Origin: Chamaesiphon sp.
Lineage (GTDB): Bacteria > Cyanobacteriota > Cyanobacteriia > Cyanobacteriales > Chamaesiphonaceae
Direction: 5' to 3'
Length of the DNA stretch: 64,000 nt
Assembly (NCBI GenBank): GCA_965246715.1
Contig: CBDFFH010000002.1
Coordinates: forward strand, 192,001-256,000
In this document: positions 26,528 to 51,572 of the stretch, one piece after another
Layout of the letters: each line of letters starts with the position of its first letter
Numbering within the stretch: the stretch's first letter is position 1
The notes under the pieces: model-generated
Told to the model about the DNA's origin: nothing
What the model saw: the letters and a program-made list of their open reading frames with translations, nothing else
The model's database searches: none
Program-made: the position numbers and the translations under genes

Positions 26528-26665
26528 AGCGCATTCCCAATCGCTTGCAACACCCGCTTATAGTCACGCGGCATCACCTTCACAAACTTCGGCACCATCT
26601 CATCCTAATTCGCCAGCACGGACATCGCTTTCTGACTCTTGGTATATTGGGCGTGTTTCTCGATC
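26528..26665 (-). pseudogene. gltB: gltB 3'-end copy B (short, internal stop, truncated at both ends)
   Basis: [41 protein letters not shown]. Confidence 0.9.
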
Positions 26666-26675
26666 TCAAATTGAG

Positions 26676-27014
26676 TTATTCCTCTGTTAGATCGGGTTCC
26701 AAATCCAATGCAAATAAGATCGCTTGTTTAATTTTCAGCATCACATCATCGGGTAGCTGCCCTAATTTTCTTTCCAATCTGACTGTTGGTATCGAAGCGA
26801 TCCCTTGAACATTGGCGATCGAATCTCGATCTAGAAACCGAAGTCTTGGCAAGACAACTTCGTATGAACTATCTCGATACTGAGTTGTCAATGGCACATA
26901 GATTGCCAGTGCCCTTGGGGGATCTAGATCGTGGCGGGAGACAATTACAACTGGACGAGTTTTCGCAGCTATCCCCAGATCCGCTAGCCACACTTCACCA
27001 GGATTAAGGTTCAT
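26676..27014 (-). CDS. PemK/MazF-family toxin
   Basis: PGEVWLADLG..KTRPVVIVS, VPLTT, RKLGQL. Confidence 0.88.
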   Translation of the reverse strand: MNLNPGEVWLADLGIAAKTRPVVIVSRHDLDPPRALAIYVPLTTQYRDSSYEVVLPRLRFLDRDSIANVQGIASIPTVRLERKLGQLPDDVMLKIKQAILFALDLEPDLTEE

Positions 27015-27192
27015 CGATTAAATCCAGCACATCTTGTTCGACAGTTCGCGATGGCAGTAAATCGAGAATATCGCGATCTGCCAAATCAATAATTTCTGAG
27101 ATATATTGACGGACTCGATCGGATATTTCTGGCTTCCACTCTTGCAATTTAATTCCTAGTCTTTCAGTCAAGGCATCCATCAGTATCTCCAT
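27004..27192 (-). CDS. Putative antitoxin
   Basis: Small ORF overlapping the toxin start; its N-terminal ~60 aa are nearly identical to 36849-37130. Confidence 0.75.
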   Translation of the reverse strand: MEILMDALTERLGIKLQEWKPEISDRVRQYISEIIDLADRDILDLLPSRTVEQDVLDLIDEP

Positions 27193-27329
27193 TGCAAATG
27201 ATGGGACATTTCTATTTTGCCAAGTTTATGACAGCATAACAAGTAAACAGAGCAATGCTTTTAGACCATTCTACTAGCATTGCCTCACTCGTGCGCCCCT
27301 GGCGGAGCTTTGCTCATCGATCTAACGTC

Positions 27330-28001
27330 TTAACTCCCCCCAATTCGCGCCACATCGCGAGAATTTTCCTCAAACGCAGCATCTAGAGCATCATCGCCAC
27401 TCAACCCCGAAGCCAGCGCATTCTGAATCGCTTGCAACACCCGTTTATAGTCACGCGGCATTACCTTCACAAACTTCGGCACCATTTCATCCCAATTAGC
27501 CAGCACTTCTGTTGCTTTCTGACTCTTGGTATATTGAGCGTGTTGCTCGATCGAACCCTTTAACTTCTCAATCTCCTCAGCATCCGTCAGCGTTTCCAAT
27601 CCCACCATCTGGGTATTGCAGCGTGTCGGGAAATCACCCTGCTCGTCGAGGATGTAGTGGCAACTCCGGCGGCGATCGTGCCGACTCCGACTTCGGATAC
27701 TAGTTTGACGTTGATTCGGGCTTCCCGATTGGCATTTTTGAGATCGTGGATCAGTTCGGCGAGATCTTCGATCGAGTAGATGTCATGGTGCGGTGGGGGT
27801 GAAATCAGCCCTAAGCCTGGGGTGGAGTGACGAACTTTGGCAATCCAGGGATAGACTTTTTTGCCTGGGAGTTGTCCGCCTTCGCCTGGTTTGGCTCCCT
27901 GTGCCATTTTGATCTGGATTTCTTTGGCTTGGGAGAGGTAGAGGCTGGTAACGCCAAATCGTCCTGATGCGACTTGTTTGATGCCGCTATTTTTCGAGTC
28001 G
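27330..28001 (-). pseudogene. gltB: gltB 3'-end copy C with an internal ~1.14 kb deletion
   Basis: [18 protein letters not shown] is joined at ~27657 to YILDEQ..ARIGGS*. Confidence 0.93.
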
Positions 28002-28055
28002 ATCGAGATGTTAATATGTCTCTATTCCGACCGTTAGTAGGCTCCACCACCGAGC

Positions 28056-28994
28056 ATGAGTAAAAGCATCGACCATGACCAGTTGTTCAAGCAACTATTA
28101 ACGACTTTCTTTCTGGAGTTTCTAGAATTATTTACACCAGAATTCTTCGCCGCGATCGATCCTCAGAGTCTTGAAATTCTCCCGCTCGAATACTTTACCG
28201 ACATCGAAGCTGGCGAACGCAAGGCGATGGATGTCATTGTCAGAGTTAATCTTCTCGGTCGTCCCAATGCTCCACCTAGCAGTCGAGTGTCGGTAGTCGT
28301 CAATTGCGAACACCAATCCACTACCCAAGCTAATTTTCATCGGCGGATGTTCTTTTACTTCGCGCAACTGCATCGGAAGTACTTACAGCCAGTCTACCCG
28401 ATCGCGTTATTCTCCTTTGATGAGCCATATCGACCGGAACGAGATTCTTATCAGGTTCGAGTGCCTGGTTTGCAGGTGATGGATTTCAATTTCCTGACGA
28501 TCCAACTCAATCGATTGGACTGGAGAGAGTTTGTGGCTCAACCCAATCCAGTCGCAGCGGCGTTAATGGCTAAGATGGAAATCGATCCAGCAGATCGCCC
28601 ACGGGTTAAGGTGGAGTGTTTGCGGATGATTGCGAACCTCAAGTTAGATAAGGCGAGAACTTTTCTGATATCGGGATTCATCGATAATTATCTGCGGCTG
28701 AATCCGATTGAAGAGCAGCAGTTTCAGGTTGAAGTTGATAAAATTAAATTACCTACAGAACGGGAGAACGTGATGGAACTTACTACTAGTTGGATGGAGA
28801 AAGGAATAATACAAGGTCGGGAGTCAGAAGGAAGGGGATTAGTAGTCAAGCTTCTAACTCGGAAACTCGGCAACCTCTCGCCAGAACTTTTATCGCGGGT
28901 AAATGGTTTGAATCTCGATCGAGTGGAAGTCTTGGCAGAAGATTTGTTAGATTTTACCAATGTGGGAGATTTAGAGCGGTGGCTGGCGGTTTGA
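28056..28994 (+). CDS. Rpn-like PD-(D/E)XK protein with a DUF4351-type C-terminus
   Basis: DHDQLFKQLL, CEHQS, RRMFFYF, TSWMEKG and LAEDLLDF motifs. Confidence 0.82.
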   Translation: MSKSIDHDQLFKQLLTTFFLEFLELFTPEFFAAIDPQSLEILPLEYFTDIEAGERKAMDVIVRVNLLGRPNAPPSSRVSVVVNCEHQSTTQANFHRRMFFYFAQLHRKYLQPVYPIALFSFDEPYRPERDSYQVRVPGLQVMDFNFLTIQLNRLDWREFVAQPNPVAAALMAKMEIDPADRPRVKVECLRMIANLKLDKARTFLISGFIDNYLRLNPIEEQQFQVEVDKIKLPTERENVMELTTSWMEKGIIQGRESEGRGLVVKLLTRKLGNLSPELLSRVNGLNLDRVEVLAEDLLDFTNVGDLERWLAV

Positions 28995-31011: not shown

Positions 31012-31025
31012 ATGGAGAGACTGAA

Positions 31026-31406: not shown

Positions 31407-31469
31407 TGATCTAACCGAAATGATTCATTATTTTCCTCGATTGACTGCCCAGTAATCAGGTTAAGTATC

Positions 31470-32459: not shown

Positions 32460-32468
32460 GGTAATGAC

Positions 32469-33632: not shown

Positions 33633-33689
33633 CCAATTACTTTTCAACCTTTTTCTAAATAGTTTTAGACTTACAAATAGGAGATTTTA

Positions 33690-33911
33690 ATGTACACACT
33701 CATTCGTTCACTGCCATTAAATCGCTTGGTTTCAGAACAACTACCCACATTTGTAGTTTCATTTGCAATAGCAGAAACGTTCTACAAATTTCACAGTTTT
33801 ACTTTGGAATGTGGAGCCTTTTTGCTAACTTGGTTTGTCTTCGATGGTTTAATCCAGATTGGATTAAGACTACTTCGAGCTAATCGAACTCACCAGGGTG
33901 AACGCACTTAA
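33690..33911 (+). CDS. Small membrane protein whose last codons were replaced by ISAs1
   Basis: AGGAG RBS; the original end ..ANRTHR* is recoverable across the TSD. Confidence 0.65.
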   Translation: MYTLIRSLPLNRLVSEQLPTFVVSFAIAETFYKFHSFTLECGAFLLTWFVFDGLIQIGLRLLRANRTHQGERT

Positions 33912-35381
33912 ATTTCCTACTATTTAAAATCCTCGCAAATCAGTTGCAGATTTGAATTACGAAAAGTATGAAAGCTTTAATGGTAAACAAGTATAGCCAG
34001 TTAATTATGTTATATTTATTGGAAATTCAGATCGCGTCAAATGAAGCTAAAGCCAAGGCATAGTATCGCAGAACACTTTGGTGACATAAAAGACATTAGA
34101 ATTGAACGGGGGAAAAAACACAAACTAATCGATATTATCACGATCTCGATTTGTGCAGTAGTATGTGGAGCAGATGGATGGGAAGACATAGAGCTGTATG
34201 GCATCACCAGAAAAAAATGGCTGGAGGAATTTCTAGAATTACCGAATGGGATACCATCTCACGATACATTTGCACGGGTATTTTCACAAATTAATCCTGA
34301 AGAATTCAATAAATCTTTCCTGCATTGGATTAAAGGAATAAGTAAAATAACAGCAGGAGAGATAATCGCATTTGATGGAAAACAATCTCGAAATTCAAGA
34401 GACGAAAAAAATGGTAAAGGAGTAATTAATACGGTCAGTGCTTGGGCAGCAAGTAATAGATTAGTATTAGGACAAACAAAAGTCGAGAGTAAATCAAATG
34501 AAATTACTGCATTGCCTGAGTTGATTAATGCCTTAGATCTAGCTGGATGTATAGTGACAATTGATGCAATGGGATGTCAGCGAGAAATAGTCAAGAAAAT
34601 TGTCAAAAAAGAAGCAGATTATGTAATTGCTGTCAAAAAGAATCAACCAAGTTTATATGAAAGGGTAGAACAGCTATTCAAACAGGCGATTAAAACTCGT
34701 GGTGAAAGTCTGAAAACGCATAGCTTCAGCAGTAGAGAGATGAATAGAGGTAGAGAGGAAACTCGTAATTACCTAATGATATCAGACATTGCAACATCAA
34801 TAGATCCATTGCTAAAATGGCAAAATCTGACTAGTATTTGCATGGTAGAATCAGTTCGAGTTGTCAATGAAAAAACCAGCGTAGAAGCTCGTTATTTCAT
34901 CAGTAGCTTAGAAGATAATGTTGAAAAACTAGCAGAAGCAATCAGAGGTCATTGGTCGATAGAAAATTCACTCCATTGGGTACTTGATGTTATTTTCAAA
35001 GAAGACATTAGTCGAATTAGAAAAGATAATGCTCCAGCTAATTTTGCTGTTTTAAGACATATAGCAGTTAATATAATGAGTCAGAACAAGAGTCGAAAAC
35101 TAAGTGTTAGGAAGAAGCGATTTCTTGCGAGCCTTGATGAAGAATATTCGCGCGAACTTCTAGAGGCTATTTTAGCCTAAATTTAACTAACCCCAGAGTA
35201 TGAATTTGGCTAAATATCTTTAGCCGCACTTTTGCCGGACTAAATTGAGTTAATTTAACCTCGTCTTTGGTTTCGATTTTATTGATATTGTCGTAATTGT
35301 AGTTAAGCAATCGAATATCATTAATCGCCTATTTTAGTGGCTCTCGATCGAAATAAATCCTGTTTTGATGCGTTCACCCTG
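33894..35381 (+). mobile_element. ISAs1-family IS, copy 2 (1488 bp)
   Basis: Same IRs and length as copy 1; 10-bp TSD TCGAACTCAC. Confidence 0.95.
34041..35180 (+). CDS. ISAs1-family transposase
   Basis: Protein identical to 15482-16621. Confidence 0.95.
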   Translation: MKLKPRHSIAEHFGDIKDIRIERGKKHKLIDIITISICAVVCGADGWEDIELYGITRKKWLEEFLELPNGIPSHDTFARVFSQINPEEFNKSFLHWIKGISKITAGEIIAFDGKQSRNSRDEKNGKGVINTVSAWAASNRLVLGQTKVESKSNEITALPELINALDLAGCIVTIDAMGCQREIVKKIVKKEADYVIAVKKNQPSLYERVEQLFKQAIKTRGESLKTHSFSSREMNRGREETRNYLMISDIATSIDPLLKWQNLTSICMVESVRVVNEKTSVEARYFISSLEDNVEKLAEAIRGHWSIENSLHWVLDVIFKEDISRIRKDNAPANFAVLRHIAVNIMSQNKSRKLSVRKKRFLASLDEEYSRELLEAILA

Positions 35382-35484
35382 TCGAACTCACCGATAATTG
35401 GCATAACACAACCATTAAAAATAGATTGACTCATTAAAAATCGAGATGAGATCGAATTAATTTGGGACTTTCACGAAAAACAAG

Positions 35485-35530: not shown

Positions 35531-35753
35531 CTAACTCCCGCCAATTCGAGCAACATCGCGAGAATTCTCCTCAAAAGCAGCATCGAGCGCATCATCGCCA
35601 CTCAACCCCGAAGCCAGCGCATTCTGGATCGCTTGCAACACCCGTTTATAGTCACGCGGCATCACCTTCACAAACTTGGGTACCATCTCATCCCAGTTGG
35701 CTAGCACCTCTGTTGCTTTCTGACTCTTGGTATATTGAGCGTGTTGCTCGATC
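35531..35753 (-). pseudogene. gltB: gltB 3'-end copy D (223 bp)
   Basis: [23 protein letters not shown]...ARIGGS*. Confidence 0.93.
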
Positions 35754-35757
35754 TCAT

Positions 35758-36165
35758 TTAGCTAACAAAAACTTGAGGTGTAACAATTGGGATACCCCTG
35801 AAAGGATGAAGCACAAGCAAATCAGCATCATCACTGACAATACATCCAGCACCACCACTCACAGCCAATTCGAGAAACTTGTTGTCCTTCGAGTCACGGC
35901 AATCAGTAACAACTTCCGTAACTTCAACAATCATTGCATCATTTACAAATTTAGATAGAAATTGTAACCGCTCATCCTCTGAAATATAACGATTGAACTT
36001 GGGACGGCGCAACACATTATCAAGTTCAACTAGAATAGCATCAGACACTAAAACAGTGCCGAGAAAGAAGGCTAGATCGAATGCTTACCGAGGCACAGAA
36101 CATGGTGATAATACAGCACTGACAATCACATTGGTATCCAAGACAAATGTCTTACTACTCGTCAC
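35758..36165 (-). pseudogene. PIN-family toxin with a premature stop at 36085-36087
   Basis: FVLDTNVIVSAVL..PR*AF..CRDSKDNKFLELA..IVSDDADLL. Confidence 0.85.
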
Positions 36166-36385
36166 CAAGCAAAGTCTCCAAAATTTGAGGTGTTAGCCCC
36201 CGCGCTTCCGCCTTTGCCCCAATATCATCCATGATTTGTTGCAATGAAACGTCAGATGGAGCGAATAGTTCGCGAACATGCAACGATAGAAGCAACTGGA
36301 TCTTCTGTTGTTGCTCTGCTGATGCTTGGCTATATGCAAGAGCCGTAGGGACATCGACAGGAATAGAAATCGTAGTATTTGTCAT
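36155..36385 (-). CDS. Putative antitoxin
   Basis: AEARGLTPQILETLL C-terminus; overlaps the PIN start. Confidence 0.72.
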   Translation of the reverse strand: MTNTTISIPVDVPTALAYSQASAEQQQKIQLLLSLHVRELFAPSDVSLQQIMDDIGAKAEARGLTPQILETLLGDE

Positions 36386-36532
36386 CACTGCTCTCCTTAA
36401 TTTCAAATGAATGGAAATTGCTAACAGAAGAGCAATATTACCCATCAACCTGCTCTTATCTCACTCTATGTCTTGATTATAGCTTTAGACTGTTAGGCTC
36501 GGATTAACGGCTCTATCTCGATCTAGATTCGT

Positions 36533-36862
36533 TTAAAAATTTGGTTTGACGTGCTTAGTCCAGACTTCCATCAAAGCTCTAGCATCACTCGATGATAATT
36601 CCCCTAATTTTCTAATCAATAACGATCGCTCTAGACAATCGAGACGGGACAATCGCACAGTCGAAGCAACCCGCAATCCACAGATCTCCCAGTCAATTAA
36701 CACCACATCTGTTTGAGTCCTTGGTTTAGATGAAGTTACCGCTGCTACCACAACATCATCTCCATCAATCCAGAGGATTAAAACAGGTCTTTTTTTAGAT
36801 GCTGAACCATCGGTGAAAGTTATTTCAGCTATCCATAATTCACCTGCTTTAACAGTCATCAT
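36533..36862 (-). CDS. PemK/MazF-family toxin
   Basis: FTDGSASKKRPVLIL, AAVTS, GLRVASTVRL and KLGEL. Confidence 0.88.
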   Translation of the reverse strand: MMTVKAGELWIAEITFTDGSASKKRPVLILWIDGDDVVVAAVTSSKPRTQTDVVLIDWEICGLRVASTVRLSRLDCLERSLLIRKLGELSSSDARALMEVWTKHVKPNF

Positions 36863-37130
36863 AGAGCTTATCATCTTCTGAACTGTAGCTATTTAGAAAG
36901 GCATCATGAGTACGAATGGAACCTGTCGAATTCGGTTGAATGGCAATCCGATCGATTAAATCCAGCACATCTTGTTCTACAGTGCGCGAGGGTAGGGAGT
37001 TGAGAACATCGCGATCTGCCAAGTCAATAATTTCTGAGATATATCGACGGACTCGATCGGATATTTCTGGTTTCCACTCTTGCAATTTAATTCCTAATCT
37101 CTCAGCCAGGGCATCCATCGGTATCTCCAT
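36849..37130 (-). CDS. Chimeric putative antitoxin
   Basis: N-terminus matches the 27004-27192 protein; unrelated C-terminus HDAFLNSYSSEDDKLYDDC. Confidence 0.72.
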   Translation of the reverse strand: MEIPMDALAERLGIKLQEWKPEISDRVRRYISEIIDLADRDVLNSLPSRTVEQDVLDLIDRIAIQPNSTGSIRTHDAFLNSYSSEDDKLYDDC

Positions 37131-37244
37131 TGCAGATGATGAAACATCTCTATTTTGCCAAGTTTGTGACAACATCACAAGTAATAGGAGCAATACTCTT
37201 GGACTATTCTATTGGCATTGCTCCACTCGATCCCCCATATTTAT

Positions 37245-40200
37245 CTAACTCCCCCCAATTCGAGCCACATCGCGGGAATTCTCTTCAAAAGCAGCATCGA
37301 GCGCATCATCACCACTCAAACCCGAAGCCAGCGCATTCTGAATCGCTTGCAACACCCGTTTATAGTCACGCGGCATCACCTTCACAAACTTCGGCACCAT
37401 TTCATCCCAATTCGCTAGAACTGCGATCGCTTTCTGACTCTTGGTATATTGAGCGTGTTTGGAGATCGAATCCTTCAACTTACCAATCTCTTCAGCATCA
37501 CTCAGAGTTTCCAAACCCACCATCTGAGTATTGCAGCGTGTCGGGAAATCACCCTGCTCGTCGAGGATATAAGCAACACCGCCACTCATCCCCGCCGCGA
37601 AATTGCGTCCGGTTTTACCCAAGACGATGACTTGTCCGCCTGTCATGTATTCACAACCATGATCGCCGATTGATTCTACAATCGCACTCACCCCAGAGTT
37701 ACGGACACAGAAACGTTCGCCAGCCATGCCGTTGATGTAGATTTCGCCGCTGGTGGCTCCGTAGAGGGCGACGTTGCCGACGATGACGTTTTCGGCGGCG
37801 ATGAAGGTGGATTTGGGCGAGGGATAGAGGATGATTTTACCGCCGCTGAGTCCTTTGCCGATGTAGTCGTTGGCATCACCTTCGAGTTCGAGGGTGACTC
37901 CTTGGGGAATAAATGCACCGAAGCTTTGTCCAGCACTACCTTGGAATTTGAGGTGGACGGTATCGGCGGGGAGTCCGTGCCAGTGGTTTTTGGTGATTTC
38001 GTTACCGAGAATGGTGCCGACGGCGCGGTTGACGTTGCAGATGGGGAGGGTGGCTTTGGTTGGTGTGCCATCAAGAATCGAGTCTTGGCACAGGTCTAAT
38101 AAAGTAGTAATATCGAGCGATTTGTCAAGTCCATGATCTTGGGAAATCTGTTGATAGCGTCCGACTTCTGCTCCAGCTTCCGGCTGGTAGAGGAGGTTGG
38201 AGAGGTCGATATTTTTGGCTTTCCAATGGGCGATCGCTTGTTTGGATTCCAGGATATCGGTGCGCCCGACCATTTCGTTGAGGGTACGGAAGCCGAGGGT
38301 TGCCATGATTTCCCGTAAGTCTTGGGCGATAAACCGCATGAAATTGACGGTGTGGGCGGGATCTCCGGTATAGGTGGCGCGGAGTTCGGGGTTTTGGGTG
38401 GCGATTCCGGCGGGACAGGTATTCAGATGGCAGACGCGCATCATAATACAGCCGAGGGTGACTAGCGGGGCGGTGGAGAAGCCGAATTCTTCGGCACCTA
38501 GCAGGGCGGCGATGGCGATGTCCCGTCCGGTTTTGAGTTGTCCGTCGGTTTCGACGACGATCCGGCTGCGGAGGTTATTCAGGACGAGGGTTTGGTGGGT
38601 TTCGGCGAGTCCGAGTTCCCAGGGGAGTCCGGCGTGTTTGATTGAGGTTTGGGGCGATGCTCCGGTACCGCCGTCGAAGCCGGAGATTAGTACTACATCG
38701 GCGTGGGCTTTGGCGACTCCGGCGGCGATCGTGCCGACTCCGACTTCGGATACTAGTTTGACGTTGATTCGGGCTTCCCGATTGGCGTTTTTGAGATCGT
38801 GGATTAGTTCGGCGAGATCTTCGATCGAGTAGATATCGTGGTGCGGTGGTGGTGAAATTAGCCCTACACCTGGGGTAGAGTGACGGACTTTGGCAATCCA
38901 GGGATAAACTTTTTTACCTGGGAGTTGTCCGCCTTCACCTGGTTTGGCTCCCTGTGCCATTTTGATTTGGATTTCTTTGGCTTGGGAGAGGTAGAGGCTG
39001 GTGACACCGAATCGTCCCGATGCGACTTGTTTGATGCCGCTATTTTTGGAGTCGCCGAGTTCGTTCGTCCAGGTGTAGCGTTCGGGATCTTCGCCGCCTT
39101 CGCCTGTGTTGGATTTACCGCCGATTCGGTTCATGGCGATCGCCAGTCCTTCATGTGCTTCACTAGAGATCGAGCCGTAGCTCATCGCGCCTGTTTTAAA
39201 GCGTTTGAGGATATTCTCGATCGGTTCTACTTCTTCAATGGGGATGGCTGTTTGCGGTTTAAAATCTAACAATCCGCGCAGGGTGAAGTGTTTTTTATCC
39301 TGCTCGTTAATCAGCTTGGCGTATTTTTGATAGATGTCGTATTTACCCGTCCGCGCCGCCTGTTGAAGCAAGTGAATACTTTCGGGGCTGAATAGATGCT
39401 CTTCACCATCTTTGCGCCACTGATAATCACCACCGACATCTAGTGTCGCACCTTTGGCTGGTCGATCGGGGAAAGCGTGAGTATGACGGGTAATCGTTTC
39501 TTGGGTAATTATGCCGACATCAGCACCTTCAATTCGCGAGGCGGTGCGGGTAAAGTATTTATCGATCGTGGCTTGATTTAAACCAACAGCTTCAAAAATC
39601 TGGGCACCACGATAACTCTGAATTGTCGAAATCCCAATCTTCGAGGCAACTTTAGTTACGCCTTTAGTGGCGGCTTTGATATAGTTTTTGACAGCAGTAG
39701 GATAGTCAACATCAAGCAACATTTTCTGAGCGATTAAATCCTCGATCGTCTCGAATGCCAAGTAAGGATTAATCGCTCCACAACCATAACCAATCAACGT
39801 CGCAAAGTGATGAACTTCACGGGGTTCGCCAGATTCTAATACCAATCCGACGCGGGTGCGGGTACCAGTGCGAATTAGATGGTGATGTAAGCCAGCAACC
39901 GCTAATAGTGCAGGGATGGGCGCAGTTTCAGGATTAACACCGCGATCGCTCAAAATTAGGATACTAATACCGGACTCGATCGCTTTATCTGCCGCTGCAA
40001 AAATGACATCTAAGGCTGCTTCCAGACCTTTCACCCCATCGTTAGGGTTGAATAGCATGGGGATAGTAACAGAACTAAATCCACCTTCATTCAGGTGCTT
40101 TAACTTCGCAAGTTCAGCATCACTTAAAATTGGCGATTTAAGGGCGATTAAATGACAACTTTCGGGTTCTGGTTTGAGTAAATTCCGCTCAGATCCGATC

Positions 40201-41888
40201 GTTGTTTGGGCAGAAGTGATAATTTCTTCGCGAATTGAATCGATCGGGGGATTGGTAACTTGAGCAAATAACTGTTGGAAATAATCGTAGAGTAATTTTG
40301 GTCGATCGGACAACACCGCCAACGGTGTATCAGTCCCCATCGAACCCGTTGCTTCCACACCATCCCGCGCCATCGGCGTAATCAGCATCCGCAACTCTTC
40401 AAAGGTATAGCCGAAAGCCATCTGACGTTGGAGAATCCCCCCTAGCCCCCCTTGGGAAGGGGGGGACAAGAGAGACTCTGCTCCGGCTCCCCCCTTATTA
40501 AGGGGGGTTGGGGGGGATTCAGGATCTGCGATGTCCTCCAGCCTGACTAAATGCTCGTCCAACCACGCCTGATAAGGATGTGCGCTAGTAATCTCATGCT
40601 TGATTTCCGCATCGCTCACAATCCGCCCAGCGACAGTATCCACCATGAACATCTTCCCTGGCTCCAACCGTCCCTTCGCCACCACCTGCTCCGGCGGAAT
40701 CGTCAGCACACCCGCTTCCGATGCCATAATCACCAGATCGTCAGTCGTCACATAGTATCGCCCTGGACGCAAACCATTCCGATCGAGTACCGCCCCGATC
40801 GAGCTACCATCAGTAAAGGCGATCGAAGCTGGGCCATCCCACGGCTCCATCAAGCAAGAATGGTACTCATAAAACGCCTTCTTCGCCGCGCTCATCGACT
40901 CATGCGCCGTCCACGGTTCGGGCACCATCATCATCATCGCATGGGGCAAACTGCGACCGGAAAGCGTCAATAATTCCAGGGCATTATCAAAAATTGTTGA
41001 GTCACTACCATCGACATTAATTGCAGGTTTAATCTTCTGAATATCGTCGCCGAATAAATCCGACGCAAACAGCGACTGCCGCGCCGTCATCCAGTTAATA
41101 TTGCCGCGCATGGTATTGATTTCACCATTGTGGGCGATGTAGCGATAGGGATGCGCCCGCTCCCAACTAGGGAAAGTATTGGTACTAAACCGCGAATGCA
41201 CCAACGCCAACGCGCTCTCCATGTCTGGATCTTGGAGTTCGGGGAAATATTGCCCCACCTGCACGGGCATCAACATCCCCTTATACACAATCGTCCGTGC
41301 CGATATACTCGCTACATACCAATGCACATCGACATTCGCCGCCCTAATTGCCGTATGCGCCAGCTTGCGAATCACAAATAACTTCCGCTCGAATGCTAAT
41401 TCATCCGCTAATTCCGGCGATTTGGCAATAAATACCTGCTGCATAAACGGTTCACTCGATTTCGCCGTCTCACCCAAGGAACCATTATCCGTCGGCACAT
41501 CCCGCCAACCCAATACCTTCAAGCCTTCCGCCGCCACAACTTCCGCGAAAATCTGACGACTTTTCGATCGAATCGCTGGATCTGGCGAACCATACACCGC
41601 CCCAACTCCATACTGTCCCGCTGCGGGTAATTCAATCCCTTCAGCAGTCGCCACCTTCTGCATAAACTTGTGAGGCACCTGCATCAAAATCCCCGCCCCA
41701 TCACCTGTATTTGTCTCGCATCCGCACGCGCCACGATGGTCGAGATTAACCAATATCGTCAGTGCTTGCGCCACAATCTGATGCGACTTCGCCCCTTTCA
41801 TCTGCGCGATCAAACCGATACCGCAAGCATCGTGCTCAAACTGCGGATCGTATAAACCTTGTTTGCTGGGTGGTTGAATGGTATTCAT
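37245..41888 (-). CDS. gltB: Glutamate synthase large subunit
   Basis: 1547 aa; EHDACG amidotransferase start, [36 protein letters not shown] (3Fe-4S) and the GXGXG domain. Confidence 0.97.
40435..40519. repeat. In-frame inverted pair of short dispersed repeats inside gltB
   Basis: CCCCCCTT..AAGGGGGG doublet encoding [10 protein letters not shown]...PPSQGGLGG. Confidence 0.8.
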
Positions 41889-43135: not shown

Positions 43136-43552
43136 AAATGTCGATCGTGCCAAAGTGGGATTTCTCCCTGTAATAGGTTTGAGGCTCGATCGATCGGTAT
43201 TGAGGAGCATCTTTATATCCTGTTGACATTATCGATCGATTAGCTTGGGTTTAGTCGATCGTGTCGTGGTTAATTCGATCGTTACAATATTTTTGGTGAC
43301 ATTAATACGCGATCGATTTTGCTTATATCACTCTACAACTGTTAATTTGAAGCCATAGGGTTTCGTCCCAATTCTTCGCGTAACACTCGTCTCAAAGTTG
43401 ATTCTAGTAGAATTTCTCCCTGTAGGTTGGGTTGAAGCCCGCGAAACCCAACAATCCCAGTGTTTGAGGCTCGATCGATTGCTATTGAGGAGCATCTTTG
43501 TACCCTGTAGGAATGATCGATCGACATTAATAACGTTTAGTTTCGCTTGATT

Positions 43553-43972
43553 TTACTCGATCGTCCAATTTTCAACCAGCAGATTGGGTATTCGATCGAA
43601 ATCTCGTGCATTTCTCGATAGTAAGATACCTTGGTTTGCTAAAACGATCGAGGCAATACGTAAATCTTGAGTACCAACTCGAATTCGTTGTGACTTTAGC
43701 TCTCGATAGATAGATTGAGCTTCTACTGTAAACTGCAAGACTTCAAATTCAGACAATAACTTTACTGTTTCCGACAGCCATCGATAAGCATTAGCCAGTA
43801 CATCCCCATCTTTAGCCTCAGATATTTGGGCGAGTCTACCGCGCACTTGTTCCTCAACATTAATTGCGGTAGTCGTCAAAACGATCGACTGTTGTTGCAA
43901 TCTATCTATCAATACCGGATGATTCCTGCCATAGAGACTGAGATGGTCGGTATCGAAAACATAAAGTGTCAT
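43553..43972 (-). CDS. VapC/PIN toxin
   Basis: FDTDHLS, INVEEQ..G, GTQDLRIASI and SRNARDF. Confidence 0.9.
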   Translation of the reverse strand: MTLYVFDTDHLSLYGRNHPVLIDRLQQQSIVLTTTAINVEEQVRGRLAQISEAKDGDVLANAYRWLSETVKLLSEFEVLQFTVEAQSIYRELKSQRIRVGTQDLRIASIVLANQGILLSRNARDFDRIPNLLVENWTIE

Positions 43973-44268
43973 ATTTCATCTTCGCACTCATTGGCAACTT
44001 GACGAATATGAACGAGTTTTTCGATTAGATCGTCGAAGGTTGGATCGTTCTCTAAAATACCCGCATACTGCATTGGCGTAGAATTAATCTTAGGTTCGAT
44101 CGAAATTGTCACAATCTTACCTGTTGACAATTGCGACTCTAACTCGGTTTTGGCATTAGCGATCGCTTCACCTTCTGTATTCCCATCAGCAGCGATAGAG
44201 GGGATTTCAAGTACGGAAGCAGTAAAACCCCGATCCGAACGACTTTTAACAAAAACTTGATACTGCAT
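43969..44268 (-). CDS. HicB-fold putative antitoxin
   Basis: FTASVLEIP..ADGNTEGEAIANAK; ATGA overlap with vapC. Confidence 0.75.
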   Translation of the reverse strand: MQYQVFVKSRSDRGFTASVLEIPSIAADGNTEGEAIANAKTELESQLSTGKIVTISIEPKINSTPMQYAGILENDPTFDDLIEKLVHIRQVANECEDEI

Positions 44269-44539
44269 TTTTTAGCCTAAGTCTCAGTTATTACTAGTAT
44301 TGCATATTCATCCTGTAAATAGTCCGATTACCGACCGTACCTACGCGAACGAGTCAGGAGCGTTAGTAGCTAGATCTCTCTCCGTAGCTTGGATTGAGCC
44401 TTGAAGCCCGACAATTCCTGTGATTGAGGCTCAATCGCTGTTGAGGAGCATCTTTATCCTCTGTCGGAATGATCGATCGATTAGTTTGGGTTTGGTCGTT
44501 GGCGAAGCCTACCGGAGGTAATCGTTGTTGAGTCGATCG

Positions 44540-44954
44540 TTAGCAGCGAGTAATTTCGATCGTGTTTTGCGATCGCCCAAAACAGACATCAAATTCTCGA
44601 AAGAAGTTAGTTTGCCCAAGAATCAAAGGCACCTCAGAGGATTGTACCCAAGCAAATGCTAGACGAACTGATTCCAGATCCCCTATTTGAATATGCAGAA
44701 ATAAACCTCGTGCTTCAACCTTTGCAAGATTTCCAGCCAATGGTAAACGAACAGTTTGTCTCTCCCAAATTGCACCCAATTGTAACCCGATATCATAAGG
44801 CAATAGATTGACCGTAGAACCACTATCTAACAATGCATTCGCCGAGACAGCAAAGTTTGCATAATTCAGCTCGATCGGAATCATCGGTAATGCTTCATCG
44901 TCAGCAAAGGGAAACTCGTTCGCGTAGCGTACCGGAGGTAATCTTCCTAGACAT
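44540..44954 (-). pseudogene. Retropepsin-like (LLDSGS) protein frameshifted by a 22-nt insertion
   Basis: Removing 44919-44940 restores MSRKIEFPFADDEALPMIPIEL.. from an ATG overlapping the upstream gene; ILGQTNFF motif. Confidence 0.8.
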
Positions 44955-45165
44955 GAGTAGATGCCTCTTGGTCATCCCGAATCATCTGCATCAGAACATT
45001 TGCAGCTTCTGTTGCATCGTAAGGCGACCAAACCGGATACTCTGATGCAGAAAAGATAACTTGTAACTCAGCATCTGGAACTTGCGCGGCTAGAAGTTTG
45101 AAAAGTGATAATTTGTCTGGCTGACTTAGATTGTTTACCAAAGGAATTACTTCAGCTAGAGACAT
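44947..45165 (-). CDS. Small antitoxin-like partner
   Basis: LSQPDKLSL..EYPVWSPYDATEAA; overlaps the downstream gene. Confidence 0.65.
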   Translation of the reverse strand: MSLAEVIPLVNNLSQPDKLSLFKLLAAQVPDAELQVIFSASEYPVWSPYDATEAANVLMQMIRDDQEASTHV

Positions 45166-45388
45166 AGTTTAAACTCCCAGACCTACGACAATGCATCTAT
45201 CATAAGCGATCTGTGAGGTGTTGTCTAACAAACCCGTTGCACATCAACCGTGTCAAGTTTGGCTGCCTAAATCGGAGAAGTCATTAGTGAGATTTTCTCC
45301 CCGTATAAACCCAACACTTCCAGTGTTTGAGGGTCGATTAATTGCCATTGAGGAGCACTTTATATTCTGTCGAAATTATCGATCGATT

Positions 45389-45793
45389 TTATGCCAAAAA
45401 TAGTTTTGAGGGCAGGTTAAAACGATCGCTTAATTTTTCCGCTTGAGTAATATCGATCGATCTCTTGCCATCGATAACTTCAAGTACTCGATCGCTAGAG
45501 CCAAATATACCAACTAAATCTGCTGGCTGAACATCGTTCGCATCCATTAAATGTAGCAGTCGGCTGTGGGGAGTCGATAGATTTTGAGATGGATAATGTT
45601 CTGATTCAAATTTTTCAACTAAGATGACAAACAGATCGATTAACCGTTCTTCTTCACCGCTAACTGTCTCCTTACTCATTGATGTTTCGATGATTCCCAG
45701 TACCCGTTCGTATTCTGCTTGCGATCGAATTGGCTGCGGTAATACATCCGCTAAGAGATTGGCATAGGCTTGACGATTAAAAGTAAGGGTCAT
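45389..45793 (-). CDS. higA: HigA-family antitoxin (HTH)
   Basis: PQPIRSQAEYE..LVEKFE..LLHLM..EVIDGKRSI. Confidence 0.85.
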   Translation of the reverse strand: MTLTFNRQAYANLLADVLPQPIRSQAEYERVLGIIETSMSKETVSGEEERLIDLFVILVEKFESEHYPSQNLSTPHSRLLHLMDANDVQPADLVGIFGSSDRVLEVIDGKRSIDITQAEKLSDRFNLPSKLFLA

Positions 45794-46076
45794 TTTTCCA
45801 GTTATCCTTATCGTATTCGGCGTGAGTGAGAAAGTATTTAAAGTAGACTAGCTGCCTAGAATAGTTGATGGAAACAATCAGTCGATAGCGATTGCCTTTA
45901 ATGTTAAATACCGTAAAGTTTCCTACAGCTTCTGCGGAAGCATAGGTTTGTTGAACCTCTGTCAGGTTTTGCCAGGTTACAACTTTAACGATTTCATTCC
46001 AATCTTCAATTTGGGTAGCAATGTCGGAAAATTTAGCAGCAGCTTCCCACAACCTACTAATTGCAATGAGGTGCAT
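45777..46076 (-). CDS. higB: HigB-family toxin
   Basis: VFNIKGNRYRLI..FLTHAEYDK. Confidence 0.9.
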   Translation of the reverse strand: MHLIAISRLWEAAAKFSDIATQIEDWNEIVKVVTWQNLTEVQQTYASAEAVGNFTVFNIKGNRYRLIVSINYSRQLVYFKYFLTHAEYDKDNWKNDPYF

Positions 46077-46533
46077 ATTATCTGCGGAATTCTGGTCTAG
46101 TAAATAGTTTAACGCTAAATCGCACCTTTTTATGAGCGTTGGCGTTGGCGTAGCCTCTGCCTGAGCAGAAGCCGCGCCGAGATGTAATCGCTATTAATTC
46201 GGTTGAGCCTTGAAACCCAATAATCTCAGTGTTTGAGGCTCGATCGATCTCTATTGAGGAGTATCTTTATATCCTGTCGGAATTATCGAGCGATTATTTT
46301 GGGTTTGGTCGATCGTGGTTAATTCGATTGAGCCTTGAAACCCAATAATCTCAGTGTTTGAGGCTCGATCGTTGGCGAAGCCTACCGGAGGTAATCGGTA
46401 TTGAGGAGTATCTTTATATTCTGTCGAAATTATCGATCGATTATCTATTTCGAGGAACCCAACAATTTTAGTGTTTGAGGTTCGTTCGCATAGCGTACCG
46501 GAGGTAATCGATCGCTATTGAGGAGTATCTTTA

Positions 46534-47763
46534 CTCACATCTTGCACCAGAATATAAGTACTAGATTTAGATCGAGACTAATTCCAAGGCAAGACCCTGC
46601 GAGAGCAGAAAGTCTCGCTTCCGATCGATTTCTACTAAAAGTAAACTCACTGCGATCTGTGGCATTAACTGTTGAAGTGCCAGCTCAGATTCCTGTCTCC
46701 ACTCAGGCGGAAGGCTTACGTTTGAGGATAAATAGACCCAGTGGGTGAGTACAAAACTAATAAAGCTCAGAAGCAGCCAACGGTATACACCTAAAAGTGT
46801 TTGTTGACCGAAGCTAGCCAGCCCAAATCGATATTTAGCAGTCTTGAAAAATCCTTCAATTGCCCATCGACGACTGCCCCACCAAGCAATCGTACTGCCT
46901 TTAAGAGCGCGGGTCGAAATCACAAATCTTTTCTCCAACTTACCATCCCGTTTTAAGTAGAACCAGGAAGCCGTAACCACGCCCTCTAAACCTGATAGCT
47001 TAACTTGTTGACCCTTCTTGCCTAGCATCTTCATCTGTCTCCCATCTGCCAGTTTCCGGTTATTCGGTATACCAACAATTGCTTGATGACGAAGTTTTTT
47101 GACCCCGTTGAGGAATTCGACACTACTAAATCCAGTATCGGCTAATACTTGGACTCGAAAGCGGTAAGTGAGTTTCTTGGGCAAGGTGCGGAGCAATTTT
47201 AGCCCCAATTGAGCAGGAGTAGTTGTGCCTTTACCACGCCAGGAACGGAACGCCCAAGGTATTCTCCACTGTCCAACGACTAAGTACAGTACAACCAAAT
47301 GCAGTCCTCGCTTACCGTTGAGAATATGTATCAACGTTGCAAATGCTTTGAATTTCCCCCTTTTCTCCAATGTAGTCAGATCGATAATTACCTGCAAGTA
47401 AGGTCTTTGTCCTTTGGCTGTGTAATTACTCAACTGTTTCAAAATATGTTGGCGAGTCGTACGAATCACGGCTCTGGTTGGCCACCCATATTCATTGAAA
47501 AATCTGCTCAAAGCCGCAGGTGATTTAATCACCCCATGTTCTGGTAACATTTGACCATTCTTAGGTTCCATAAATAGAGCGAAACTAGCTTGGAGACTAA
47601 GTTTCTGATAGGGACTGGGCATCAGCTCTAACAACGTGTAGAGTATTAATTGGGCGTACGGGAGAATGGTATTCACTGTTCTCATCAATGTTTTTACACG
47701 CCCTTTTTCTCATATTTTGACTCCTGCGAAAATCAGTTGTTATGTACTGGTGCAAGATGTGAG
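46534..47763 (-). mobile_element. IS701-like element inserted inside one repeat copy
   Basis: 17-bp IR CTCACATCTTGCACCAG; 4-bp TSD TTTA; the flanks rejoin to GAGTATCTTTATATCCTG. Confidence 0.88.
46567..47688 (-). CDS. DDE transposase (IS701/IS4-like)
   Basis: IIDLT, LADTGF and RWAIEGFFKTAK. Confidence 0.88.
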   Translation of the reverse strand: MMRTVNTILPYAQLILYTLLELMPSPYQKLSLQASFALFMEPKNGQMLPEHGVIKSPAALSRFFNEYGWPTRAVIRTTRQHILKQLSNYTAKGQRPYLQVIIDLTTLEKRGKFKAFATLIHILNGKRGLHLVVLYLVVGQWRIPWAFRSWRGKGTTTPAQLGLKLLRTLPKKLTYRFRVQVLADTGFSSVEFLNGVKKLRHQAIVGIPNNRKLADGRQMKMLGKKGQQVKLSGLEGVVTASWFYLKRDGKLEKRFVISTRALKGSTIAWWGSRRWAIEGFFKTAKYRFGLASFGQQTLLGVYRWLLLSFISFVLTHWVYLSSNVSLPPEWRQESELALQQLMPQIAVSLLLVEIDRKRDFLLSQGLALELVSI

Positions 47764-47935
47764 TTTATATCCTGTTGGAATTATCGATCGATTAGCTTTG
47801 GATTTTGTCGATCGCTTTGCCGACGTTTTTAGTCAGGGCTTGTAAGAGCGATCGATTTAAAAGCTTCTTAAATCGATCGCCATACCCCAACAACCAGTGA
47901 GTTATAATCGACATACGAGACTCAGAAACAACCGT

Positions 47936-48295
47936 ATGACTAGCAGCGAAATTAGCTATACCGAAGCACAGAGTAATTTAAGCGTTCTGCTCGATCGCGT
48001 AGCAGATAGCAAAGATATTATTATAGTCAAACGAGACGGCACCGATAAAAACGTCGCTCTCATTGCCGAAACAGATCTCAGCAGCCTCTTAGAAACGGTC
48101 TATCTACTGAGATCTTCCGCCAACGCAACTAGACTGCATCGGGCAATCGATCGAGCCAAACAAAGAGATCTCCAAGGCTACAGCCATACAGAACCAGAGA
48201 ACCCATCACAATCGATCGCTGCATTATGTGAGGAGTTAGGAATTGTGGCTCTTCACTACTTAGTATGCTCGATCGATAGCAAATGTGGCAAATAG
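47936..48295 (+). CDS. yefM: Phd/YefM antitoxin (C-terminus extended into ISL3)
   Basis: SYTEAQSNL..SLLETVYLLRSSANATRL. Confidence 0.85.
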   Translation: MTSSEISYTEAQSNLSVLLDRVADSKDIIIVKRDGTDKNVALIAETDLSSLLETVYLLRSSANATRLHRAIDRAKQRDLQGYSHTEPENPSQSIAALCEELGIVALHYLVCSIDSKCGK

Positions 48296-49682
48296 AAATT
48301 AATCAATATGTGAAATTGCCATAAAAGTGGAGTGATAATTGACATTGGGGGCATTTTGTTATTAAGTATAATCTAATTGAAAGCGATCTTGAGACAAACC
48401 AGAAGAAAATGCTCACCAAAAAGGAAATACAACTACTAACAGAAGTACTAAATCTAGCGGGAGTAAAAGTAAATGCCAAGCACCAACATGAAGGAATTGG
48501 AATAATTTTAGGAGTTGAGTCGAGCGAAAAAATAAGTGTTTGCCAACGCTGTGGTTTGAAAAGCGACAAGTTACACCAAAACCATCGGCAAATAATCAAA
48601 GATTTGGATTGGGGAGGGCAAGCGGTATTTTTAGAAATAAATAGAAGACAATTCAACTGCGAAAAATGCCAGAAACCATTTAGCGAAGAATTAGAATTTG
48701 TCAAGTCAAGAAGAAGATACACGAAAAGATTAGCAGATCGGATAATAGAAGAAGTATTAGCAGATGACATTAGGAGTGTAGCGAAGAAGGGGAAGGTAAC
48801 AGAGAAAGAAATAGAAAGAATGCTAAAGGATGCATCAGGAGATTTATCAAAAATAAAACCAATAGGATTAAAAAGATTAGGGATAGACGAAATAGCATTG
48901 ATTAAAGGGCAGGGAAAATATTGTGCAGTATTAATAGACATAGATCGTTCTAAATTATTGGCAATTATCGAGGGAAGAACCAAAGAAGAAATTAAGAAAG
49001 TCCTGAGAGAGTGGGGGTCAGAGGTATTAGAAGGAATCGAAGAAGTAAGCATAGACTTATGGCAGGGATATAAAAGTCTAGCAATAGAAATGATGCCAAA
49101 AGCTCAGATAGTAGCAGATCGATTCCATATAATGGTACAAATAAATCAAGAATTAGATGGAGAAAGAAAGAAGGAGAAGCGAAAAATCGAAGCAGAAATA
49201 AAGCAAGCAAAAACCCCAGAAGAAAAAGCGGAGAAAGCGGCTATATTAGCAGGAATAACTAATAGTAAGTATCCAATATTGAAAAACGAAGAAGACTTAA
49301 ATGAAGAACAGAAAGACAAGCTAGCTCAGGTAAAAAATGTATCAAGTCAGCTCGGAAAAATGCATCAATTGAAAGAGGATTTTCGAGAAATATTTGAGAA
49401 AAAGGAAAACTGGAATGAGGGATTACTAGGCTTAGGGGAATGGCTGTCAAAAGCTCAAAAATATTTTGTCAAAAGTCAAGGGACAATTTATCGATGGTTT
49501 GATGAAATACTGGCTTATTTTGACAATGGAACAACTAGTGGAGTAGTGGAGGGAATTAATAACAAGCTAAAACTAATCAAACGTTCAGCATATGGATTTA
49601 CTAATTTTGAGAATTTCCGAAATAGATGCTTGCTTAATTGGCACTTCAATCATTAATTTGGCATACTAACTAGTGAAGAGCC
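48247..49682 (+). mobile_element. ISL3-family IS (distinct from the 24092 element)
   Basis: IR GGCTCTTCACTA.TTAGTATGC; 8-bp TSD GGAATTGT. Confidence 0.93.
48409..49656 (+). CDS. ISL3-family transposase
   Basis: LGIDE, ADRFH and EGINNKLKLIKR. Confidence 0.95.
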   Translation: MLTKKEIQLLTEVLNLAGVKVNAKHQHEGIGIILGVESSEKISVCQRCGLKSDKLHQNHRQIIKDLDWGGQAVFLEINRRQFNCEKCQKPFSEELEFVKSRRRYTKRLADRIIEEVLADDIRSVAKKGKVTEKEIERMLKDASGDLSKIKPIGLKRLGIDEIALIKGQGKYCAVLIDIDRSKLLAIIEGRTKEEIKKVLREWGSEVLEGIEEVSIDLWQGYKSLAIEMMPKAQIVADRFHIMVQINQELDGERKKEKRKIEAEIKQAKTPEEKAEKAAILAGITNSKYPILKNEEDLNEEQKDKLAQVKNVSSQLGKMHQLKEDFREIFEKKENWNEGLLGLGEWLSKAQKYFVKSQGTIYRWFDEILAYFDNGTTSGVVEGINNKLKLIKRSAYGFTNFENFRNRCLLNWHFNH

Positions 49683-49686
49683 GGAA

Positions 49687-50010
49687 TTGTCCGCTAAAAA
49701 GAAAGATAAAAATCGCTCTGAAAATTCTCAACCAGAAATAATTATCGTTCAAAGGCAGATTATTTTTGATGAAGATTTCCGAGAAGATTTGCAATGGTGG
49801 TATCGGCAAGGCGTTCAAAAAGCCAACAAAATACTCGATCTAGTAGAATCCATTTGTATAGATCCATTTTTAGGAATTGGTAAACCAGAACCACTAAAAT
49901 TCATGGAAGCAAATACATGGTCGAGAAGGATAGATTTAGAGCATCGACTAATTTATCGAGTTCAAAATGAATCTATTCAATTCTTACAAGCTCGTTACCA
50001 TTATGAGTGA
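49687..50010 (+). CDS. yoeB: Txe/YoeB toxin
   Basis: FREDLQWW..PFLGIGKPEPLK..WSRRIDLEHRLIY..QARYHY. Confidence 0.93.
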   Translation: MSAKKKDKNRSENSQPEIIIVQRQIIFDEDFREDLQWWYRQGVQKANKILDLVESICIDPFLGIGKPEPLKFMEANTWSRRIDLEHRLIYRVQNESIQFLQARYHYE

Positions 50011-50275
50011 GATTTTTTCCCGTAGGTTGGATTTAAGCCTGCGAAGCCCAACAATCCCAGTGTTTGAGGCTCGCTCGTTGGCGAAGCCTACCGGAGGTAA
50101 TCGCTATTGAGGAGCATCTTTAATATCCTGTTAAGATTATTGCTCGATCGATTAGCTGGGGTTTGGTCGATCGTTGTTGATTCAATCGATTGCCTCGATA
50201 CTTTACTCGTTGGCGGAGCCTCTCATGAGAGAATCGGGTAAAATTAGGAGGCTGTAGTAAATTGCGGTGTAAACT

Positions 50276-50518
50276 ATGACAGAACTGCTTCAACAGGTAA
50301 TCGCCCAAATCGAACAACTGCCAATCGATCGACAAGAGGCGATCGCGGCTCGGTTTCTGGCAGAATTGGCGGAAGAACAACAAGCTGAGAACGTATGGGT
50401 TGAAGATGTCCGATCGAAAATTGATGCTGCCATTTCAGCCTCAGAGCAAACGCCACCGATCGATGGCGAAACCTTCGTTAACCAAATTTTAGAGCGGTTT
50501 CAGCGCGATCGGGTGTAA
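50276..50518 (+). CDS. Putative antitoxin (ParD-like C-terminus)
   Basis: Small ORF directly upstream of a ParE-like gene. Confidence 0.68.
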   Translation: MTELLQQVIAQIEQLPIDRQEAIAARFLAELAEEQQAENVWVEDVRSKIDAAISASEQTPPIDGETFVNQILERFQRDRV

Positions 50519-50524
50519 ACATAC

Positions 50525-50824
50525 ATGAGTCTCTATGTTATTAACGTTCTTGCCAGTCGAGATCTGATTGAAATCGCTGACTACTTTGCTGAAACCAATG
50601 TAGAAGTAGGCGAACGATTTTTTAAAGAATTTAATAGCAAGTGTCAACAACTAGTTTCCTTTCCCAGCAGTGGTAAAAGCTATGGAGCAATTCGCCCAGA
50701 TCTCAGAGGACTATCTCTCGAAGGTTATATTATTTTCTACCGTATTCTCGATGATGGCATCGAAATCCTCAGAGTTGTTAGTGGTCGTCGTAATCTTCCA
50801 GCACTTTTTAGCGACCCAGACTGA
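50525..50824 (+). CDS. RelE/ParE toxin
   Basis: ASRDLIEIADY..FPSSG..YIIFYR..IEILRVVSGRR. Confidence 0.9.
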   Translation: MSLYVINVLASRDLIEIADYFAETNVEVGERFFKEFNSKCQQLVSFPSSGKSYGAIRPDLRGLSLEGYIIFYRILDDGIEILRVVSGRRNLPALFSDPD

Positions 50825-51088
50825 TTAACTGAGTGGGTTTTCTTTCCGTAAGTTGGGTTGAAGCCCTCGGAACTCATCAATCTCAGTTTTGAGGCTCGTT
50901 CGCATAGCGTACCGAAGGTAATCGTTGGCGAAGCCTACCGGAGGTAATCGCTATTGATGAGTATCTTTACATTCTGTTGAAATTATGGCTCGATCGATTG
51001 GCTTTGGTTTAGTCGATCGTGGTTGATTCGATCGATCTTTGGTGTGATGGTTTTGGGATCGATCGATACGAATGACGGTCGAACGAGA

Positions 51089-51448
51089 TTATTGGAGTAA
51101 GATATCTGCCGGAATATCCAACTGACCGTGAAGTGCGCGAATCATTTCTAGCGTTAAAGTTTGACGTTTAGACATTACTTCTGACACTAAATATTCGCTA
51201 CCAATAATTGGAATTAGATCGGCCTTCAATCGATCTGACTGTTCTAGTCGAAACTCGATCGCGGCGATCGGATCTGGTAATCCGATTGGAAAATATTTAT
51301 CTTCATATAACTCAATCAGAGTTGCCAGTACTTCTAATTCATCAGCTTCAGGTGTATTCGGCTAAGATGACATCAAAGCTCCCGCTCGTTCCAATGCATC
51401 CTGATAATCAGTTTCAGTTTTAATCGGTCTAATTAAAGCAGTATTCAT
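51089..51448 (-). pseudogene. HigA-like antitoxin with an internal TAG at 51362-51364
   Basis: Manual translation: MNTALIRPIKTETDYQDAL..SS*PNTPEADELEVLATLIELYE..PDPIAAIEFR..LTLEMIRALH. Confidence 0.82.
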
Positions 51449-51572
51449 ATTAACTCTACATCAATGGTATCGTAATCTTGATGAGTTCCAACAAATCGGA
51501 TAAAAATAATCTGTGTGGATCGCGTTGAATTAGCCACAGAAATACATGAGTATCCAGCAAAAACCGACCCAT
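51445..51572 (-). pseudogene. Fused remnants: vapC 5' end plus higB 3' end
   Basis: MGRFLLDTHVFLWLIQRD joined at CGATC (51518-51522) to QIIFIRFVGTHQDYDTID. Confidence 0.8.

Follow-up and report, generated by a model that had tools for sequence, protein, structure and literature searches.

The window analyzed here, a 64,000-nucleotide stretch of the Chamaesiphon sp. genome (contig CBDFFH010000002.1, positions 192,001 to 256,000), carries gltB and, downstream of it, copies A to D, four fragments of the 3' end of this gene that are 85-94% alike. Between them lie insertion sequence (IS) elements, a DUF4351 gene, and pairs of an antitoxin gene with either mazF or a PIN-domain gene. The original prediction held that junctions in this region repeatedly coincide with CGATC(G), the core of the highly iterated palindrome HIP1, and that the core serves as the non-homologous joint in cassette formation. 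Counts across the genome and genus uphold part of this claim: the core is found at joints about two- to threefold more often than expected by chance, but it is bypassed by about 80% of the gene-tail joints and by about 90% of the breakpoints in an unselected set. The core is likely a favored but dispensable joint, the passive default for a minority of junctions, and its excess likely arises because, among the short matches that any two stretches of this genome may share, this motif is the most frequent; a role for methylation is not needed to account for it. With a probability of roughly 0.6, the array of tails and toxin-antitoxin cassettes was built by homologous recombination on the gene tail combined with one microhomology-biased non-homologous joint. 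The elements on which this reading turns are as follows.

37245-41888, minus strand: intact gltB, glutamate synthase large subunit (1547 amino acids; Pfam GATase_2, Glu_syn_central, Glu_synthase and GXGXG), the anchor of the array
37464-37468, no strand assigned: core GATCG of the intact gene, a landing site that is reused, about 224 bases short of the stop codon
35529-35753, minus strand: gltB tail copy D, behind a PIN-domain gene, beginning inside the site
27328-28001, minus strand: gltB tail copy C, in two pieces, with an internal deletion near 27658-27668
26528-26665, minus strand: gltB tail copy B, behind mazF, beginning inside the site and truncated at its 3' end
21435-22391, minus strand: gltB tail copy A, starting off-site, with the nearest CGATCG at 22412

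Abundance of the HIP core

The window has a G+C content of 43.9% and contains 278 copies of CGATCG and 27 of GCGATCGC, the HIP1 octamer; across the 6.12-Mb genome, CGATCG has a spacing of 216 bp. Genome-wide, the commonest octamer of the CGATCG type is TCGATCGA (757 per Mb, against 458 per Mb for HIP1), in agreement with the published table entries for Chamaesiphon (750 and 448 per Mb, respectively; PMC4390886) and with the over-representation of CGATCG-containing octamers expected of genomes rich in HIP1 or its derivatives. Counted on either strand, the five-base core reaches 8.3-8.5 per kb, and a random point between 21 and 54 kb of the window falls within 0, 2 or 5 bp of it in 4.0%, 6.4% and 9.8% of cases, respectively. 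Just after stop codons the density is 11 per kb; compared with 8.4 per kb, this local enrichment is too small to be the cause of the excess at joints.

The core at gene-tail joints

Partial gene duplications were surveyed locally in genome G000 and in 1.6 Mb of G020 and G011, and five genes were followed through 27 genomes of the genus, with expectations derived from local shifts. The list of gene-tail joints was curated by hand: one repeat pair was dropped, as were insertions of mini-repeats or IS elements, polA and gltB "edges" that turned out to be diverged alleles, and about 155 rows of one 210-row candidate list (mostly a clustered regularly interspaced short palindromic repeat array, along with intragenic repeats, RHS and paralogue pairs). 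A scan of metagenomes for gltB tails returned 80 loci whose best amino-acid identity was 75%, too distant for any to be used, and indel mapping against G020 was set aside, since the two genomes are about 84% alike over an aligned fifth to third and gave too few clean indels.

Among the local partial duplications, 7 of 38 edges lie within 2 bp of the core, against 3.4 expected (p 0.045), and the five genes followed through the genus contribute 9 of 46 joints against 1.9 (4/39 against 1.7 if each of the reused sites, in gltB and xfp, counts only once). Pooled, 16 of the 84 gene-tail or cassette joints fall within 2 bp of CGATC or GATCG where 5.3 were expected; collapsing the reused sites leaves 11/77 against 5.1 (p 0.01), and the strict hexamer, likewise collapsed, 7/77 against 3.7 (p 0.07). 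Reuse is concentrated at two places. At the gltB site, five different upstream cassettes were joined within 12 bases across the genus, their joints ranging from 8 bases before the site to 4 bases into it; at the xfp site, four cassettes were joined. None of the nine metH joints and none of the five acnB joints is at a site. The enrichment over background against which the original prediction was to be checked is thus present here and among unselected breakpoints (see below), and absent from deletions and tandem duplications: two-copy tandem duplications have the core at 6 of 58 ends against 6.0 expected, after 48 of 77 candidates had been dropped as periodic or multi-copy, and the ends of deletions inside tails show no excess either (1/30 against 1.3), being associated mostly with other microhomologies.

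The core at unselected breakpoints

A broader set was obtained by comparing the loci fetched from the genus with each other and with G000. Of 4252 edges, 2445 were dropped as non-abrupt or repeat-adjacent; the remaining 1807 abrupt non-repeat edges form 494 position clusters, 22 of which are mini-repeat edges, leaving 472 breakpoints. Each position is counted once, kin are not fully independent, and ordinary divergence among the edges dilutes the signal. Of these breakpoints, 40 have GATC starting within the shared segment, 0-3 bases from its edge, against 17.7 expected (2.26-fold, p 4e-6), and CGAT and GATC rank first and second among the 256 four-mers at the shared edge. Outside reading frames, 44 of 300 breakpoints lie within 2 bp of the core (22.8 expected). 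Breaks that run through the site are not enriched (18 against 17.7 among the 472 breakpoints).

Two other origins of this excess were considered and rejected. A Sau3AI- or MutH-like cut before GATC predicts a peak at offset 0, whereas the excess is seen at +1 to +3. An alignment-edge artifact from conserved sites is opposed by simulation, in which random joints reached only 0.95-0.98-fold, even with better-conserved sites. Site-specific recombination at HIP1 requires joints confined to the site, and neither the gene-tail joints (16/84) nor the breakpoints (40/472) are so confined; nor is there one fixed crossover bond, as the gltB-site joints are scattered and a through-site excess is absent.

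Passive matching and its alternatives

Simulated joints that require 5, 6 or 7 matching bases yield excesses of 1.9-2.0-fold, 3.1-fold and about 4.5-fold, respectively, inside the edge and little through the site. Both parents could be placed beside the joint in 147 three-way rows, of which 40 share at least 5 bases and 96 share 0-2. GATC is at the edge in 15 of these rows, and in 10 of the 15 the site is shared in register. Among the 36 rows with matches of 5-20 bases, GATC occurs in 12; the prediction, based on how often loci without relation match by chance, is 11.1. The passive model also picks out the hot spots: it ranks the reused gltB site first at match lengths 5, 7 and 8 and second at 6, and the xfp site first at 5-8, attributing a share of 10-36% to the two reused sites.

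Several observations weigh against passive matching as the full account. The 15 and 36 rows include repeats of the same spacer and hence represent fewer independent events. Observed reuse at the gltB and xfp hot spots exceeds the passive share. Three joints at sites look one-sided, with a partner that lacks the site: a gltB joint (L012), an xfp joint (compared with L337) and, on contig C25, a tandem copy that is 99% identical. Inside reading frames, breakpoints within 2 bp of the core are not enriched (12/172 against 12.0), although GATC begins 0-3 bases inside the edge in 13 cases there against about 5. Finally, the lack of enrichment at deletions inside tails counts against it where deletions with long microhomology are concerned.

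The alternative that survives best, rather unlikely in our estimate, is that methylated CGATCG is actively recognized in strand exchange, or that arms edged by a site spread better by transformation, so that joints pile up beyond what matching provides. In line with this, a terminal HIP1 on a 250-bp arm was reported to raise transformation 7-fold, and 83-fold if methylated (10.1101/2024.09.10.611283). The short gltB arms measure 215-230 bp and start at the site, start clusters with a site are tighter (4-12 bp) than those of metH, which has none (27-60 bp), and candidate methylase genes of the C5 and Dam families are present in the genome. Its case otherwise rests on the residue described above, namely the reuse beyond the passive share and the three one-sided joints. 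However, the overall excess equals the passive prediction, gene-tail joints show no excess 3-10 bases from the edge (5 against 3.3), and the metH and acnB arms manage without a site. An integrase-free system of Chamaesiphon-like cyanobacteria, in which tails of housekeeping genes serve as homology arms, toxin-antitoxin cassettes spread by transformation and methylated CGATCG at the outer arm edge actively sets or selects the cassette boundary, is likewise rather unlikely; if true, it would give the HIP core a direct and testable role in gene acquisition.

Chance combined with shared descent, i.e., one old arm that began at a site by accident and was passed on by descent, is a reading already disfavored. 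It draws on the weak collapsed counts given above, and on the finding that joints B, C and D are each common to several genomes. The unselected set, in which each position is counted once, nevertheless retains its 2.26-fold excess, with CGAT and GATC as the top two four-mers.

Slightly less probable still, and very unlikely, is a nuclease or recombinase that cuts CGAT^CG, as whatever places the SDR5-like inserts described below would do, followed by joining of the ends to unrelated DNA. Some activity does address the CG^ATCG bond, as is clear from the exact inserts: a 22-base module with two small hairpins lies exactly at CG^ATCG in 56 of its 70 genomic copies. Cutting there would also suit copy C, which starts at this bond, as well as the joint of L012 and the point where the antitoxin types part, both of which coincide with it. 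As an origin of the cassette joints, however, such cutting is opposed by the missing through-site excess and by the 12-base range of the gltB-site joints. Furthermore, the positions of gltB that took up inserts in relatives (3061, 3652 and 4216 of the gene) did not turn up among the cassette joints, and no insert occupies the hot spot of joining. An integron-like array, served by a distant tyrosine recombinase for which either the site or the region around the gltB stop codon is the core, can be dismissed almost entirely: all full tails do diverge right past the stop codon and 23 tyrosine-recombinase matches exist elsewhere in the genome, but the spacers are gene fragments of 130-1800 bases with variable starts rather than short attC-like sites, several unrelated genes carry tail arrays, an Rfam scan, made with no attC model, gave no match in 14000-56000, and the window contains no tyrosine recombinase, the nearest match on the contig being about 68 kb beyond it.

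Proposed assembly of the array

If microhomology-biased joining and homologous recombination on the tail suffice, assembly could proceed as follows. A duplication or circle would join the far end of a cassette to a point inside gltB at a microhomology of 0-10 bases. The resulting tail-cassette-tail unit would enter another chromosome by two ordinary crossovers through natural transformation, and later joints would replace the upstream cassette, again with a preference for the TCGATCGA site, as the arm offers no better short match. Homologous recombination on the gltB tail would reshuffle the array. The ComEC and DprA families are represented in the genome. All full gltB tails diverge right past the stop codon (GTTAG or GTTAA), and in relatives, too, they end at the stop codon and continue into different DNA. 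Copy D recurs with its cassette and arm in G018 and G010, with differing four-base linkers; the copy B joint recurs in G024, and the start of copy C is common to G006, where it occurs twice, and G007.

Individual junctions of the window

The junctions from which the core was first proposed as a joint involve the following further features.

26676-27192, minus strand: antitoxin and mazF cassette between copies C and B
28000-28005, no strand assigned: putative hybrid CGATCG at the start of copy C
28056-28994, plus strand: DUF4351-containing gene adjoining the copy C start
35758-37193, minus strand: antitoxin/mazF and antitoxin/PIN cassettes between gltB and copy D
36949-36954, no strand assigned: CGATCG at the divergence of two antitoxin types, corresponding to the mazF start codon in the other type
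51513-51514, no strand assigned: true vapC/higB deletion joint, 3-4 bases from GATCG at 51518-51522

All five motifs cited for these junctions exist (CGATC at 26661-26665 and 35749-35753, CGATCG at 28000-28005 and 36949-36954, GATCG at 51518-51522), yet five motifs are not five joints. The coincidence is firm for copies B and D, which were said to share a start: homology to gltB is lost at one and the same base in both, C^GATCG in gene sense. Copies A and C do carry the intact CGATCG ascribed to them, at 21653 and 27548; the intact gltB of the window has only the five-base core at the B/D break site, and most relatives have the full hexamer. The edge of copy A had been recognized as an exception about 20 bp from the nearest site, which is borne out. 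The caveat that B and D may derive from one event applies only in part. Their cassettes are different and each recurs in other genomes; therefore, B and D are probably separate events, although D may instead have been added to an arm of the B type. The parents of the two cassettes diverge before the joint is reached. Next to the D joint, the four bases before the site (35754-35757 in the window, with counterparts in L017 and L018) are wholly different in three genomes at equal length, in sequences whose flanks are 85-87% alike; this looks like a short patch conversion beside the site.

The remaining junctions are weaker. Copy C does begin at a CGATCG, cut as CGAT/CG, but gltB reads GG/CGAC in every full-length allele aligned, and because these alleles lack the site at that point, the CGATCG of copy C appears to be a hybrid or to have arisen by mutation later on. 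The 27 genomes yielded a partner parent neither for the copy C joint nor for that of L001. The DUF4351 gene beside copy C, a domain typical of Rpn-family nucleases, is found together with the arm as a unit twice in G006 and once in G007. The antitoxin fusion placed at CGATCG is a weak case: the divergence does lie there, but it is an old one at the mazF ATG and the hexamer is poorly kept. Homology between the two antitoxin genes stops at ATCGAT, where the shorter type meets the mazF start codon; this shorter type is also present in G018 (89%) and G009 (76%), and of the five relatives that have the longer type, only one retains a complete CGATCG. The vapC/higB fusion does not lie at 51518-51522 as proposed, since its joint maps 3-4 bases away, at 51514/51513. 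Both parents stand side by side in G013, G014 and G007, and the joint is a deletion of 260-310 bp with 0-2 shared bases, the nearby site being present in the vapC parent only. Two joints of the window that had not been listed, the internal deletion of copy C (27658-27668) and the 3' end of copy B (26528), lack the site.

Tail arrays at other genes

The architecture of tail copies and cassettes is not confined to gltB. It is also seen at metH, acnB and xfp in relatives, and polA has 5' copies. These arrays and copies were located at C2:155626-156996, C51:1-19000, C44:113390-114147 and C13:5020-7890 in G000 and at L364; the acnB cassette array contains a Dam-family methylase gene (G000 C51:6461-7159). 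In G011, four metH tail copies follow metH. Pieces of the metH tail also occur far from metH (G011:C3:3618650-3618679 and C3:1865125-1865302), one of them next to acnB, which suggests that cassettes may move between arrays. In the literature searched, where most subscription papers fell outside the coverage, gene-tail cassette arrays were not found described. The gltB of the window is 92% identical to that of G020 (L030), compared with about 84% for the average of aligned DNA; polA reaches 90% and metH and xfp 86%. Anchor genes may be exchanged between species along with cassettes.

Relation to known systems

A smtB deletion bounded by HIP1 and recombination at HIP1, reported for plasmids, have been described in Synechococcus (Gupta 1993, Robinson 1997 and Akiyama 1998, as cited in PMC13756078 and PMC4390886). 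Those cases share with the present ones a HIP-type palindrome at an illegitimate joint. Here, however, the hexamer and TCGATCGA take the place of the HIP1 octamer, and natural cassette and gene-tail joints were counted across a genus and found mostly off-site. According to the title of Robinson 1997, as cited, HIP1 promotes excision about as frequently in E. coli; a passive role would agree with this. Within the literature coverage given above, no genome-scale count of HIP at natural joints was found. The present count, which sets the core at natural non-homologous joints against a null, shows a real but modest excess predicted by abundance alone; it bears on the function of HIP1 and cautions against reading single cases of HIP at a junction as site-specific recombination. 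The 220-bp gltB arm and the 130-bp xfp arm, with and without the site, are ready test substrates.

Homology-facilitated illegitimate recombination (PMC6382021) combines one homologous anchor with one joint of a few bases during natural transformation. A homologous anchor on one side is present here as well, in tails that are 85-94% alike and end at the stop codon. The gene-tail arrays would thus work in a similar way, as a likeness rather than a proven membership; they differ in that the anchor gene tail is duplicated and the array holds multiple cassettes, and they are known from sequences alone.

In sedentary chromosomal integrons, repeats separate the cassettes of an array, and type II toxin-antitoxin systems are plentiful among these cassettes. 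The arrays described here resemble them in this respect, but their spacers are gene tails of variable length, and no integrase with attI, as an integron requires beside its array, is present in the window.

The second array and the SDR5-like inserts

Upstream of gltB lies a second toxin-antitoxin array, in which 22-base inserts interrupt CGATCG.

43177-53586, plus strand: second toxin-antitoxin array, with a CGATCG-rich spacer repeat of 100-200 bases in at least nine copies on one strand
44499-44520, plus strand: 22-base SDR5-like insert at CG^ATCG, the first of 11 copies between 44499 and 53061
50078-50099, plus strand: 22-base SDR5-like insert at CG^ATCG
51947-51968, plus strand: 22-base SDR5-like insert at CG^ATCG
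53040-53061, plus strand: 22-base SDR5-like insert at CG^ATCG

The spacer repeat contains 14 CGATCG per kb and is almost wholly confined to this locus and its counterparts in relatives. No Rfam family was found for it, and as a parent gene was not found either, the possibility that this spacer is itself a gene tail was rejected. The inserts have the geometry of the small dispersed repeat SDR5, a module of about 21 bases that enters GCG^ATCGC and leaves no duplication. As in the published accounts (PMC4390886, PMC5861425, PMC13756078), a module of 21-24 bases lies between the third and fourth base of the octamer position, at CG^ATCG, and filled and empty alleles exist, here among relatives in both gltB and vapC. 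Unlike SDR5, the target here is the hexamer with any flanks, and the likeness rests on insertion geometry, not on sequence. One of these accounts, dated 2018, reported no SDR5 outside Nostocaceae (PMC5861425), so that precise CG^ATCG mini-inserts are extended here to a lineage outside that family. Modules of 22-24 bases are also found at L013, L015, L020, L144 and L148.

Other repeats of the window include an in-frame palindromic repeat inside intact gltB (40432-40520, gltB positions 1369-1456), which is absent or different in L008 and L015. Additionally, a DDE transposase element is present in the left array in two 99.9% identical copies (15331-16824 and 33890-35383), and ISL3 copies lie at 24242-25480 and 48409-49656.

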